Shown here: piece by piece, positions 27,390-63,189 of the stretch
Numbering within the stretch: the stretch's first letter is position 1
Layout of the letters: the number at the start of each line of letters is the position of its first letter
NCBI GenBank assembly: GCA_003243955.1
Contig: QHCE01000024.1
Coordinates: 188 to 64,187 of the forward strand
Source: Acidimicrobiales bacterium
Lineage (GTDB): Bacteria > Actinomycetota > Actinomycetes > Mycobacteriales > QHCE01
Reading direction: 5' to 3'
DNA: 64,000 nt
Notes under the pieces: generated by a model
The model's database searches: none
Told to the model about the DNA's origin: nothing
The model's input: the letters and a program-made list of their open reading frames with translations, nothing else
Made by a program: the position numbers and the translations under genes

Positions 27390-28472
27390 ATCATCCCGCA
27401 GACGTTTGGGTTGATCCGTGCCATGTTTGAGGGGGTGGAGCTCGCCAAGGCTTTGGGGATGATCGGCCCGGTCATGGCGTTGGCCGCGGTGTGTGGTCCC
27501 GTACTCGGCGGTGTGCTCACCGACACGAACATCCTCGGCGCGGGATGGCGCTCGGTGTTCGGAGTTAACGTGCCGCTGGGGGTCGCGGTGCTGCTGGTTT
27601 CGCCTCTCATCCGCGAGGATCGCTCGCCCAACAATCCCCGGCTCGACCTTGTCGGAACTGTCTTGGTGGCCGTTGCGGCAGGTCTGCTGATCTACCCGCT
27701 AGTGCAAGGCAACGATGCCGGCTGGCCGGCGTGGACCTGGATGTGCATGACGCTCGGGGTTGTGGTGCTGGCGGCGTTTATACGGCATCAAATCGAAAAG
27801 GTACGGCGGGCGGGAAGCACGCTCGTCGAACCCGGATTGTTCCGCGACCGCATGTTTCCCGCCGCGATGCTCAGCTCGTTGCTGTTCTTCGCGGTGATGA
27901 ACGGACTGATGTTCGTGCTCGTCGTCTTCTTTCAGATCGGACCCGGCATGAGTGCCCTGGGTGCCGGACTCACCATGCTGCCATGGTCGATCGGGCTGGC
28001 TGTCGGATCGTGGTTCGCTGGAGCGGTACTAGTACCCCGCTTCGGCGCCCGCGTGATGCGCGCCGGGGTTGTCATGACCGTGCTGGGCTTGGGTAGCACC
28101 GCGGTGCTCATCACGGCGCCGGCCTTCGAACTGACATGGCGACTACCAGCACCCCTCCTAGTAGCAGGGACAGGACTCGGAATGTTCACCGTCCCTTTCT
28201 TCAGTAGCGCGCTTTCCCGGATAGCCCACCACGAAACCGGATCCGCATCTGGGCTGCTCAACGCCGTTCAACAGCTCGGCGCAACTGTCGGAGTCACGCT
28301 ACTGGGCACCGTCTTCTTCCGCATCGCGCGAAACCACACAACGCAACTCGCGTCTTGCGCCGCCAGTGGGACCCAACTCGCACTGTGGATCTCTAGCGCG
28401 ATGCTCGTAGCCGTCCTGGCGCTGACCTACCCCATGCTTTCCAAGCCACGTCGCCACGCAACCGTGACCTAG
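27390..28472 (+). pseudogene. 5'-truncated DHA2 (EmrB/QacA-type) MFS transporter
   Basis: Similarity begins mid-protein (PQTFGLIRAMF..., GPVLGGVLTD, WRSVFGVNVPLG). About 4 N-terminal TM helices are missing. It abuts the AsnC fragment, implying a deletion across the divergent promoter. Confidence 0.6.
28383..28451 (+). repeat. Direct repeat copy A (3' end of the MFS gene)
   Basis: CTGTGGATCTCTAGCGCGATGCTCGTAGCCG...CCCCATGCTTTCCAAGCCACGT recurs at 29352..29421 with 4 differences. Confidence 0.9.
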
Positions 28473-29247: not shown

Positions 29248-29351
29248 GTCTATAGGGTGTACCCCGACTCATGGCTTGAGGCTACTGCATCACCGCCGCC
29301 AGCCCTCGGCAAAGTCCTGGTTGGTGTGCCGCTAGTGGGACACAGCTAGCG

Positions 29352-29421
29352 CTGTGGATCTCTAGCGCGATGCTCGTAGCCGCCCTGGCACCTGACATAC
29401 CCCATGCTTTCCAAGCCACGT
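29352..29421 (+). repeat. Direct repeat copy B (decayed duplicate of the MFS 3' end)
   Basis: Aligns to 28383..28451 with 3 substitutions and a 1-nt insertion. It lies just downstream of the secA stop. Confidence 0.9.
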
Positions 29422-32376: not shown

Positions 32377-32383
32377 CTCTCTA

Positions 32384-32596
32384 GGCAAGACGACGAGAAC
32401 GCAAGTAGGCAAATGCCTACTGATAGGTCCCTGCCAAGGCCGCAGGAGCCGCCGCGTGCAAAACGACGTGGAAAGGCGGCTCAAGAACAGTGAAACGCCG
32501 GCAGGCAATACCCGATAGGGTCCCTGCCAAGGCCACAGGAGCCGCCGCCTACGAAGGTAGGCAAGGCGACGAGAACGCCGGCAGGGACCCTATCGG
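32384..32596. repeat. Nested direct and inverted repeat cluster in the hpf-secA spacer
   Basis: Module Y (GATAGG(G)TCCCTGCCAAGGCC(G/A)CAGGAGCCGCCGC) occurs at 32422 and 32514. Module X (GGCAAG(A/G)CGACGAGAACGC) occurs at 32384 and 32560. A perfect 17-bp inverted repeat pairs 32512..32528 with 32580..32596. Confidence 0.85.
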
Positions 32597-36376: not shown

Positions 36377-37186
36377 CTAGCTCATCACTACATGGCGTTT
36401 CGCGGTGGCACTGTCTCTGGTGGCACTGTCTCTGGTGGCACTGTCGGTAGTGGCGCTGTCTGAGCAAGGATCCGATACACCTGCTGCCCTGCCCGTCCCC
36501 GCCTTATACCCCACGCCGCGCACGGTAAGCACAACTTGAGGATTTTCTGGATCCCGCTCCACTTTGGAGCGAAGTCGCTGTACATGCACATTGACTAACC
36601 GAGTGTCGGCCGCATGCCGGTAGCCCCATACCTGCTCGAGTAACAACTCCCGAGAAAACACCTGTCGCGGTTTACTGGCCAGCGCAACAAGCAGGTCAAA
36701 CTCTAACGGAGTCAGTGCTAAACGTTCGCCAGACCGGCTCACTTCATGGCCTGCGACATCGATCACAACAGGATCCTCCGGGGCTCCGATCTGGAACCGC
36801 TGAACCACTACCGATTCACGACTGCGCAGCCGAGCGCGAATGCGAGCAACGAGCTCCTTGGGACGAAAAGGTTTGACCACATAATCGTCGGCGCCCGACT
36901 CCAAGCCAAGCACCACATCGATGGTGTCGCTCTTGGCCGTGAGCATCACAATGGGCACACCGGACTCTTCCCGGATCGCTTTGCATACGTCAATGCCACT
37001 CATACCCGGCAGCATCAGGTCCAGTAAAACCAAATCTGGCTTGCTCTCCCGAAAAACTGTAAGCGCACGGTCACCGTTAGTCACAAAAATCGGGGCAAAT
37101 CCTTCGCTCCGAAGCACGATGCCAAGCATTTCCGCCAACGCGGGATCATCGTCGACTACTAAGACTCGCAATGTCATGCATGACAT
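36377..37186 (-). CDS. mtrA: Response regulator MtrA (OmpR family) with an unusual repeat-containing C-terminal tail
   Basis: RVLVVDDDPALAEML...DLMLPGMSG is the receiver domain and VLTVRGVGYKAG ends the wHTH. About 40 extra residues follow, including DSATT/DSATR/DSATR/DSATA. Confidence 0.9.
   Translation of the reverse strand: MSCMTLRVLVVDDDPALAEMLGIVLRSEGFAPIFVTNGDRALTVFRESKPDLVLLDLMLPGMSGIDVCKAIREESGVPIVMLTAKSDTIDVVLGLESGADDYVVKPFRPKELVARIRARLRSRESVVVQRFQIGAPEDPVVIDVAGHEVSRSGERLALTPLEFDLLVALASKPRQVFSRELLLEQVWGYRHAADTRLVNVHVQRLRSKVERDPENPQVVLTVRGVGYKAGTGRAAGVSDPCSDSATTDSATRDSATRDSATAKRHVVMS
36404..36463. repeat. 15-bp tandem repeat, 4 units
   Basis: GGTGGCACTGTCTCT occurs twice perfectly, followed by GGTGGCACTGTCGGT and AGTGGCGCTGTCTGA. 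Confidence 0.95.
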
Positions 37187-45748: not shown

Positions 45749-45874
45749 CGCCCAGGACGGCTCGGCCGCACCCACCGTCGAATGGCCGCACAGGCAACAT
45801 TTCATTTCTTCGTGCCCAGGACGGGATTCGGCCACACCACCGTCGAATGCCCGCATGGGCAACATCTCATTCTT
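45749..45874 (-). repeat. Two tandem units of about 63 bp, each carrying a copy of the tRNA-Leu 3' end (att-like scars)
   Basis: Unit 45811..45874 begins with CGTGCCCAGGACGGGATTCGG, of which GTGCCCAGGACGGGATTCG (19 nt) is identical to the 3' end of the tRNA gene plus its adjacent flanking base. Unit 45749..45810 is a more diverged copy (CGCCCAGGACGGCTCGG). The remaining roughly 45 nt of the two units are about 85% identical. Confidence 0.85.
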
Positions 45875-45876
45875 TG

Positions 45877-45961
45877 TGCCCAGGACGGGATTCGAACCCG
45901 TACGCCCCTTCCGGAGCAGCCATTTTTAAGACGGCCGTGTCTGCCATTCCACCACCCGGGC
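45877..45961 (-). tRNA. tRNA-Leu (anticodon TAA)
   Basis: GCCCGGGTGGTGGAATGGCAGACACGGCCGTCTTAAAAATGGCTGCTCCGGAAGGGGCGTACGGGTTCGAATCCCGTCCTGGGCA. It has a 7-bp acceptor stem, a long variable arm, a GTTCGAATC T-loop, and anticodon loop CT-TAA-AA. Confidence 0.9.
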
Positions 45962-50346: not shown

Positions 50347-50516
50347 TAAGAGGCTGTCGGGGGATCTCCTCCGTCGCGAGCGGTGAGTCCAGGTGGATGT
50401 ATGGCAAGGCGGAGGAATTCCAGGTAGCGGTGTTCTACCTGGAACTTTCGACAACGCAGCCAGACGCCGCCTGGTCGCCGCGCAGCAGGTACGCGAGATT
50501 TCCCGACAGCCTCTAA
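50347..50516. mobile_element. Palindromic MITE-like element, copy 1
   Basis: 20-nt terminal arms AGAGGCTGTCGGGGGATCTC and GAGATTTCCCGACAGCCTCT. The core is about 90% identical to 62756..62878 and includes the hairpin TTCCAGGTAG-CGGTGTT-CTACCTGGAA. Confidence 0.8.
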
Positions 50517-50548
50517 ACACCTATGGCAGAACCCAACGGTCTTGTAGA

Positions 50549-50923
50549 GTGACGGCCGTGGCAAGGCATCGCTCAAGCTTCCGACACAGGGCGGCTAGAG
50601 CAGCTGGGGCTTGGGCGCTAGGGGGCGCGGTCGGGGCTACGACTTTTGTTGAGCTCCTACGTCAGGGAACTCCACCGAACGAGGCAGCCAAAATTGCAAC
50701 CGGCTTTGTTTCGGGTACCGCGAGCACCATAAATAACTTTTTTGCCGACCAGCCGCAGGGCCTCTGCCTTAGCGGCATGGCTGTTACTGCTGAAATCGCA
50801 GCTGAAGCCAATGGCGTTCCCTTTGGGTTACCTTTGGCTATAGGTAACAGCGTTGGGGCCACAGCGGGCCTGTCCCGTGTATTGGTAAATCATGTTTTTG
50901 GTAGAAGACCTCCACGGCGGTAA
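50549..50923 (+). CDS. Hypothetical small Gly/Ala-rich protein (uncertain)
   Basis: Part of track ORF 50393..50923, lying downstream of the repeat element. A GTG at 50549 is possible. No family recognised. Confidence 0.3.
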   Translation: MTAVARHRSSFRHRAARAAGAWALGGAVGATTFVELLRQGTPPNEAAKIATGFVSGTASTINNFFADQPQGLCLSGMAVTAEIAAEANGVPFGLPLAIGNSVGATAGLSRVLVNHVFGRRPPRR

Positions 50924-50961
50924 CGTTAGCGGTTCTTCACGTGGCCGCCCCGTTCCGCCAT

Positions 50962-50990
50962 CTTCGACAACTAGGCACTAGTTGTCGAAG
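50962..50990. terminator. Perfect 13-bp hairpin between convergent genes
   Basis: CTTCGACAACTAG-GCA-CTAGTTGTCGAAG, with no strong T tract. Confidence 0.4.
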
Positions 50991-51042
50991 GTTTAACTAG
51001 ATGCTTTGGCTGCTTTAGTATTGTTACTTCGGCGGCTCGGCT

Positions 51043-61758: not shown

Positions 61759-63189
61759 TCACACCCAGAGTGCGCTGAACGGAAGCGCTACAAGTTTGGG
61801 GCCGAACGGGGCAGCGGTCTTGCCCGTATGAAGCAGTACACCGCCGACGAAACGCTTGCCAAGTTTTTCCGCGAACCAGCGTAGATGCCGGAAGTCCTTC
61901 TCGCCCACAGTTGAGCTGGCCTTTACCTCCACTGCGCCAACTCTACCGTCAGCCGTCTCCACAACAACGTCGATTTCACGCTGATCATATGTACGGTAGC
62001 TAAATAGCCGAATCTCCTGCTGCGCCCACCATGCTTGGCGGCGTAGTTGTTCCACCGCAAAACCTTCGAGGATTGGGCCGGCGTAATCAGGCTCTTCACC
62101 AGGCGCAAGTCGAGCGGAGGTCAGGCCGAGTAGATGAAACACCATGCCCGAATCTGTGAGCTGGATGCGGTGACGGCCAGTCTCGCGCTTAGTGAGATTC
62201 GTCGACCATGGTGGCAAAAGGTGTAGCAGATAAAGCCGTTCGAGCACATCCAGATATGCCGGAAGCGACCGAGCGGGAACGTTGATGCTGGAAGCTAAGC
62301 GGTCCACGACTAGTTCGTGTGTCTGTCCAGCCGCCAACATTCGCAAGAGTACTGGTAGGCGATCAATATGTTGCAGATCTGCTTGCTCGGCGGCGTCACG
62401 TCGAAGTAAGCGGTCTAGGTAGTCCCGCCACCAAGCGTTCCGGGAACGGCCCGATGTTCGAACACGGGCCTCGGGAAATCCCCCAGCATTGGCAGCGTTC
62501 AGGTAATCTTCGCGACTCCATGTGCCCGACCGATCAAGCGTAAAATTCCCAGCTACCAATCGATCAAGAAAATTATCCGGGCGTCCCGCAAGCTCTCCCT
62601 GGGTAAAGGGATGCAGCTCAACGGTCTGAGCGCGCCCGGCCAAGCTGTCGGCAGAGCCGGGGGCTCGCAGCAAGTCTGCGCTAGGCGGTTACGAGAAACC
62701 TACCAGGCCGGAGGTCGGTATCAACAGCCGCTTAAGAGCCTGTTGATGAACTTCTTCCGTCGCGAGCGGCGGTCAGGTGGATGTATGGCAAGGCGGAGAA
62801 CTTCCAGGTAGCGGTGTTCTACCTGGAAGCTTCGACAACGCAGCCAGACGCCGCCTGACCGACGCGCAGCAGGAAAACGAAGTTCACCAACAGGCTCTCA
62901 GCGCCAGAGCCAGCTCGGGCGCGCGCTGCGCTTCATCTATGGCCAGCAGACCGCCTGGGTGCTGGGCAACGAATGCGCTGGGATCAGCGTGTGCCGCCGC
63001 CAGTGTCACTGGATCGTCAAGGGTCACTAGGCGCCCCTGGCGTGCCGCTACCAACTGTGAGACCAAGGTTGATTTGCCCACCTGTCGCGCGCCCTGCACT
63101 ACAGTGATCCGGGCCGTGTCTAAGGCTTCAAGCACCAACGGCGTAACCGCACGGAAAATTGGCTTGCGAAGAGGATCTTTAGCCGACAT
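61759..63189 (-). pseudogene. AAA_14/DUF4143-family ATPase gene, interrupted by the MITE-like element and frameshifted
   Basis: The N-terminal part (62884..63189) reads VVQGARQVGKSTLV...LLAIDEAQRAPELALAL. After the insert it reads AAVDTDLRPGRFLVTA-stop, then shifts frame to LLRAPGSADSLAGRAQTVELHPF and a DUF4143 tail (61759..62673). Confidence 0.75.
62733..62900. mobile_element. Palindromic MITE-like element, copy 2 (inside the ATPase gene)
   Basis: Arms AGAGCCTGTTGATGAACTTC and GAAGTTCACCAACAGGCTCT, with the same core as copy 1. Confidence 0.8.

Follow-up and report, generated by a model that had tools for sequence, protein, structure and literature searches.

Two palindromic sequences in the window, the stretch of 64,000 nucleotides analysed here, are copies of a previously undescribed, non-coding family of MITEs from an uncultured actinobacterium of the Mycobacteriales branch. 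This class assignment follows from clean empty sites, a 3-bp target duplication, terminal inverted repeats, a sequence devoid of coding capacity, and dispersed copies. The element is of an ordinary kind with one exception, namely that its terminal arms change fast between copies and yet are always complementary to each other. All observations considered jointly, the best explanation, which we hold to be highly probable, is a non-autonomous MITE of ~162–164 bp that is mobilised in trans and duplicates TWA at its target, with an IS5-family enzyme as the likeliest partner. The initial annotation of the pair had proposed a structured RNA, a hairpin-dependent mobile element, or two MITE subfamilies. 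A mobile element of the MITE type is now backed by two empty sites with 3-bp target duplications, and the notion of two subfamilies understates the variation, given six copies with six arm pairs. The host lineage is far from cultured genera, since the next MazG matches after those of close relatives are ~59% identical and come from Micromonospora or Cryptosporangium.

Structure and distribution of the element

Both of the ~170-bp palindromes first described in the window are present, and in the same (+) orientation. [quoted passage not shown] The extents originally given (50347..50516 and 62733..62900) enclose genuine palindromes, the outer 3 bp of which are the duplicated target triplet and not element. 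In the same way, of the TAAGAG said to be shared by the left ends, GAG is the start of the element and TAA the target triplet. Copy 1 (164 bp; 50350..50513, plus strand; ends GAG...CTC) is found in the mazG–eno spacer between TAA triplets at 50347..50349 and 50514..50516. Its placement upstream of eno stands, at about 100 nt from a start that the public record puts at ~50250 rather than at the 50–220 nt first stated. Copy 2 (162 bp; 62736..62897, plus strand) is found inside an ATPase gene, between a TAA at 62733..62735 and a triplet at 62898..62900 that now reads TCA, one change from TAA. It is also in place in three other assemblies of the same species, GCA_050999955.1 and two Logan assemblies. 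Public gene calls for the region are those of contig DAITIK010000002.1 from the MAG GCA_036837295.1.

From the outside in, the element is composed of 19-bp arms, short and partly paired hinges, a helix, an irregular stretch, and a central hairpin. In copy 1 the arms are at 50350..50368 and 50495..50513 (plus strand) and form 17 Watson-Crick and 2 G.T pairs over 19 positions; in copy 2, 18 of 19 positions pair between 62736..62754 and 62879..62897 (plus strand). Position 20 pairs in no copy. The elements begin with GAG in five of six copies, the sixth, at locus L001, starting with GTG. Inside the arms, an imperfectly palindromic core of ~120 bp surrounds the central hairpin, which has a 10-bp stem and a 7-nt loop. 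Its conservation between the window copies was noted early on, and the 27-nt sequence TTCCAGGTAG-CGGTGTT-CTACCTGGAA indeed occurs exactly twice in the window, at 50418..50444 and 62802..62828 (both plus strand), where none is expected by chance. The 10-bp stem is invariant across all six copies save for one compensated pair in the copy at L002. The core helix inside the hinge contains two conserved G.T/G.U pairs, one of them in all six copies and the other in five. The irregular stretch, in which CAGGTGGATGTATGGCAAGGCGGAG faces CGACAACGCAGCCAGACGCCGCCTG, is near-invariant, and the same mismatches and bulges are retained in all copies. Lengths are 162–164 bp except at L003, where two internal insertions, one of them within the loop of the central hairpin, bring the element to 202 bp.

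Folded as RNA, the plus strands of copies 1 and 2 each adopt one long hairpin structure with an energy of -97 to -100 kcal/mol (z-scores relative to shuffled sequences, -8.4 and -9.3), and the element is also computed to fold strongly as single-stranded DNA. A compensatory change between the two copies had been reported for a second helix (CCAGG/CCTGG versus TCAGG/CCTGA). The pairing of copy 2 is found in the predicted fold, where GGUCAGGUGG pairs with CCGCCUGACC, but the compensation itself depends on how a 2-nt indel is placed, the alignment having a gap at this pair in copy 2.

The further copies and the covariation that the initial annotation had suggested looking for were both found. Six copies were found, each at a locus unrelated to the others, and they come from a minimum of four genomes or metagenomes: the two in the window and four elsewhere (L001 to L004), the latter in two Mycobacteriales MAGs and one metagenome contig. 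The genomes with copies include those of the window, JTS-RE384, and LS6_sbin.2, which are different species-level genomes. In collection scans based on exact words or patterns, by which diverged relatives may have been missed, an exact core 20-mer was found in only three contigs, all from Mycobacteriales MAGs, in a genome collection of 185,579 species, and a 26-position pattern in one contig of a metagenome collection and in no viral contig. BLAST searches of plasmid and phage collections gave no similar sequence. A search with nhmmer through ~260 kb from the same and related genomes gave no copy beyond the six, and nothing else resembling the arms occurs in these sequences. Copies appear to be few in each genome.

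When the four open frames of the core were used as protein queries, only an open reading frame of the window itself, 50393..50923, was returned. This 176-aa frame (plus strand) is a public protein call that starts in copy 1 and runs into the spacer. With a G+C content by codon position of 0.64/0.59/0.50, which is unlike that of coding sequence, and no match in Pfam, it was probably called in error because of the element.

Several other repeats occur in the window. The 3´ end of tRNA-Leu(taa) (45876–45961, minus strand), with ~40 nt downstream, is repeated 64–65 nt further on at ~90–96% identity (45772–45961), a pattern suggestive of the scar left by an integrative element at its attachment site. 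A direct repeat of ~95 nt is found at 28356–28451 and 29325–29421, the copies being 969 bp apart and 89–97% identical. A 15-nt tandem repeat, GGTGGCACTGTCTCT, is located at 36404–36461 inside a long minus-strand reading frame, and short repeats at 32382–32585 have start-to-start spacings of 93 and 176 nt.

Insertion sites and the interrupted ATPase gene

[quoted passage not shown] For copy 1, locus L008 from a relative with an 84% identical MazG has the orthologous mazG–eno spacer without the element, reading GGAC-TAA-ACACC against GGAC-TAA-[164 bp]-TAA-ACACC in the window. For copy 2, loci L005 and L006 read GGCGC-TTA-AAGCC, with a single TTA (TAA on the plus strand of the window), against GGCGC-TGA-[GAGCC...GGCTC, 162 bp]-TTA-AGCGG on the minus strand of the window. 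On these comparisons, both copies were inserted after the lineage split from the relative sampled in SRR13704960.

Between mazG and copy 1 is a geneless stretch of 525 bp (50517–51042) that is 81% identical to L008. Its place is taken in other relatives by a 333-aa open reading frame, an ATPase gene, or a TacA/TacT pair, and tblastn detected no remnant of the 333-aa frame in it. In the MAG JTS-RE384 (L009, 3025–4299), an intact AAA_14/DUF4143 gene is located between mazG and eno. A member of the gene family broken by copy 2 thus adjoins, in JTS-RE384, the site that corresponds to the position of copy 1 in the genome of the window.

The effect of copy 2 on its host was to break a gene. The N-terminal fragment of the ATPase (62884..63189, minus strand) covers positions 3–84 of 129 of Pfam AAA_14, and its frame enters the element and stops there. 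The C-terminal DUF4143 fragment (61759..62673, minus strand) is assigned from Pfam and the joined reconstruction. Joining the two restores AAA_14 positions 3–128 of 129 with a score of 83.5 bits, and intact orthologues, P0001 (92% identity) and P0002 (91% identity), are encoded at L005 and L006, the former being syntenic with the window. The AAA_14/DUF4143 gene (61759–63189, minus strand) is accordingly a pseudogene that copy 2 has cut in two; it has also lost 1 nt next to the insertion and contains a second frameshift further along. In the public record, the two parts are listed as independent proteins, 101 and 304 aa long.

Other copies are in the 3´ region of a gene or at an operon junction. 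Copy 1 separates the minus-strand genes mazG and eno. Those outside the window are between an ABC-like gene and coaE (L001), precisely between two GGDEF genes, with the stop codon of the first on one side and the ribosome-binding site of the second on the other (L002), on the minus strand between plus-strand genes (L003), and between a HAD-like gene and hemA (L004). Three of these four are at or within a few bases of the upstream stop codon (L002 5401–5403, L003 766–769, L004 5258–5270). At L002, the upstream gene has the duplicated TAA as its stop codon, and the other triplet is found ahead of the ribosome-binding site that belongs to the next gene. Insertion may favour stop codons, since TAA/TTA triplets are probably rare inside the genes of this 60% G+C genome. 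The sequence TAAGAGGTCTCC beside the L002 copy was considered as an excision footprint and rejected, since it corresponds to the ribosome-binding region of the GGDEF gene that follows.

The flanking triplets are identical in two of the six copies and differ by one base in three. These single differences are always at the middle base (TTA/TAA at L001, TAA/TCA at copy 2 and L004). The original target of copy 2 was TAA according to the empty site, and it is puzzling that its TCA recurs at L004, an unrelated copy.

Arm covariation and the conserved core

Each of the six copies has its own pair of arms. Within a copy, the 19-bp arms are complementary at 16–19 of 19 positions, and the left arm agrees with the reverse-complemented right arm of the same copy at 16–19 of 20 positions, compared with a mean of 12.5 of 20 for the right arms of other copies. 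The original observation on the window pair, that the 20-nt arms differ at 7 of 20 positions between copies and match their own partner with 1–2 mismatches, is reproduced, and the idea that pairing was preserved while the arms drifted has gained strength with the four additional copies. In the alignment of six sequences, 18 of 62 pairs are changed on both sides, against 8.1 ± 1.9 in shuffles, and none of 500 shuffles reaches 18. A control in which the partner was slid by 1–3 columns gave 1–5 such pairs. The terminal helix alone has 13 covarying pairs out of 21.

Across the six copies, divergence is about threefold faster in the arms than in the core, with complementarity kept, the mean difference between copies being 32.5% in the arms and 11.5% in the core. 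Moreover, the distances in the two regions are uncorrelated (r = -0.25). Between copy 2 and the copy at L004, 4 of 122 core positions are different, compared with 13 of 40 arm positions (Fisher p = 3e-6), and the copies at L002 and L003 have similar arms and the most different cores. Descent with point mutation alone fails to explain this mismatch of histories. A hybrid arm pair, with a left arm of one type and a right arm of another, is not found among the six copies. The complementarity looks like a property of the elements that propagate rather than one maintained at each site, because the 0–3 arm mismatches of the inserted copies fit a slow decay after insertion.

Two simple origins of the arms were tried and rejected. 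An origin from, or resemblance to, the flanking target DNA was hinted at by a BLAST overlap at copy 2, but comparison of the six copies with shuffled flanks gave no convincing signal, the lowest p being ~0.017 among 24 tests. Insertion of the core into an existing host palindrome was likewise discarded, the empty sites holding the triplet only and the window containing no arm-only palindromes.

Separate binding of the two ends by a transposase gives no reason for variable arm positions to be complementary. The hairpin constraint on the variable arms is real but puzzling, and three causes of the matched arms are possible: a folded, paired form may be needed for propagation, one arm may be repaired from the other in a snapped-back hairpin, or the core may undergo gene conversion. 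The last of these can be extended to a neutral by-product, in which gene conversion homogenises the core, the arms keep an old divergence and are matched by template switching, and no structural selection is involved. The uncorrelated arm and core distances speak for such a process, as do the near-identical cores and different arms of copy 2 and L004, and the arm mismatches of inserted copies, which suggest that there is no maintenance in place. However, conversion within a genome cannot align cores across the genomes of the window, JTS-RE384, and LS6_sbin.2 without transfer, and template switching would tend to erase the conserved mismatches and bulges of the core unless these are selected. 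Single crossovers in the core should, in addition, produce elements with hybrid arms, and none was seen. We regard the neutral process as a candidate on the unlikely side.

A further possibility is that the element is recognised as a folded structure and not by its end sequence, with the asymmetric core as recognition module and arms that need only pair or be re-copied at each move. This would explain the six matched arm pairs, the lack of hybrids, and the disagreement between arm and core histories. We put it forward tentatively and consider it unlikely as things stand.

Strand asymmetry, mobility, and related elements

Folding of both strands, also among the checks first proposed, shows that the long hairpin is more stable on the plus strand in six of six copies, by 2.7–14.6 kcal/mol. 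The difference is due to G.U pairs, and the arms of the six copies contain four G.U against one A.C on this strand. All six copies are oriented antisense to the neighbouring genes, including copy 2 within its minus-strand gene (two-sided p 0.03 for six of six). With six copies, an effect of transcription and an effect of replication on the orientation cannot be told apart.

These asymmetries bear on the proposal that the element is a structured non-coding RNA gene, mobile or domesticated, with the core as the functional RNA and a terminal stem that need only pair. The better fold of the plus strand in every copy and the preponderance of G.U over A.C in the arms agree with it. So do the two conserved G.U pairs of the core, which were inherited, however, and are not independent events. 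Internal loops and bulges are conserved and regular helices covary, and the core differs by ~11% between genomes whose intergenic DNA differs by ~19%. On the other hand, a sigma-70-type promoter or an intrinsic terminator was found on neither strand, and a TANNNT hexamer is absent from the conserved part of every copy on either strand. The Rfam search suggested in the initial annotation matched no family: at the gathering threshold, the window yields nothing but a tRNA at another position, and a permissive search of the locus gave a chance match of 10 bits. As the better-folding strand is antisense in all six cases, read-through transcripts would bear the weaker strand. A needed RNA gene would not be expected to destroy another gene, as one copy does, or to be missing from a close relative, as is the case for both copies of the window. 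An independent RNA gene is unlikely on account of the lack of a promoter, the antisense orientation, the destroyed gene, and the copies absent from the relative, and we consider the wider proposal of a structured RNA, one of those first made for the pair, quite improbable.

The hairpin-dependent elements named at the outset fare worse still. On this view, the element would belong to the REPIN/RAYT or IS200/IS605-PATE type, and a tyrosine (HUH) transposase would move it in the form of folded single-stranded DNA. In REPINs, hairpin pairing is kept by correlated changes, as is the case here, and orientation bias relative to replication is typical of single-strand transposons. The present element folds strongly as single-stranded DNA and is biased in six of six copies with respect to gene direction, and probably to replication direction as well. 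IS200/IS605 and RAYT elements, however, make no target duplication and insert at a specific tetra- or pentanucleotide beside one end. A 3-bp duplication at a clean empty site together with symmetrical ends thus argues against them. If genes are co-oriented with replication, the better-folding strand would, moreover, be on the leading-strand template, as judged from the negative GC skew of the plus strand, and this is opposite to the IS608 type. Finally, no HUH gene was called in the loci examined. Known hairpin-dependent single-strand transposons are therefore very improbable. A small protein gene is ruled out by 1-nt indels that shift every frame, leaving no reading frame shared by all copies.

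Trans-mobilisation of a MITE is the reading we prefer. A transposase encoded elsewhere would move the element in trans, inserting it at T(A/T)A and duplicating these 3 bp, and the likeliest partner would be an IS427/IS1031-type enzyme of the IS5 family. Among IS5-family elements, IS1237 from the actinobacterium Leifsonia has termini starting with GAGG and duplicates TTA/TAA (PMC2516522). IS1237/ISLxx6 of Leifsonia xyli thus resembles the element in its GAG(G) ends, its 3-bp TTA/TAA duplication, and its actinobacterial host, while only GAGG is shared between the IS1237 repeat and the arms when compared by eye. In Paracoccus, by contrast, elements of the IS427 group duplicate 2 bp (PMC3281130). 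The present element differs from the IS427/IS1031 type in that its arms vary between copies, its interior is conserved, and no partner transposase with matching ends was found; in agreement with the first observation that no transposase is nearby, none was called in 81 kb of the contig of the window. The IS5-family assignment is accordingly inferred.

The conserved core would be what the mobilising machinery or a host factor needs. For the covariation, we favour the view that only elements with pairable ends keep propagating, or alternatively that the element snaps back into a hairpin in which one arm serves as template for the repair of the other (quasi-palindrome template switching). Following insertion, the arms would then decay slowly. 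Some observations count against a MITE. The flanking triplets are identical in only two of six copies, and copies seem to be few. Classical MITEs are conserved in their terminal repeats, whereas here it is the arms that vary.

The element shares no sequence with bcr1, ERIC, Correia elements, or REPINs, but has features in common with each. In the Bacillus cereus group, the non-autonomous bcr1 repeat (~155 bp) has target duplications, is not conserved in its genomic distribution, and keeps its fold by means of compensatory changes (PMC3184786). It is similar to the present element in size, non-autonomy, target duplication, and structure kept by compensatory changes, and different in its 5-bp duplications, unrelated sequence and host, and known transcription. 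ERIC and the Correia elements of Neisseria are MITEs that are palindromic over their whole length, duplicate TA, and have conserved terminal repeats. They share with our element a similar size, a single hairpin over the whole length, and intergenic or 3´ sites, and differ from it in that the latter duplicates TAA/TTA (TWA) and has arms that are ~32% different between copies. Palindromic MITEs are generally described as being located in intergenic or 3´ positions and co-transcribed with their neighbours (see PMC10969869). REPINs resemble the element in being non-coding and in preserving a hairpin through correlated changes in both halves, and are unlike it with regard to the 3-bp duplication. 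They are REP doublets moved by RAYT, and are RAYT-dependent, shorter, high in copy number, and free of target duplications.

In conclusion, the new MITE family is mainly useful for annotation, in that it accounts for the broken ATPase gene and the spurious call of a 176-aa reading frame, and its insertion polymorphisms could serve as strain markers. The more interesting aspect is the reversal of conservation, with a conserved interior and ends that are variable but complementary. Were the element recognised by its fold, it would be a target-duplicating transposon with hairpin- or cruciform-dependent mobility, and would provide a simple test system, in which one arm is mutated and pairing is then restored. 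If the variable paired ends reflect a folded intermediate, the family would link cut-and-paste, target-duplicating transposons to hairpin-dependent ones.
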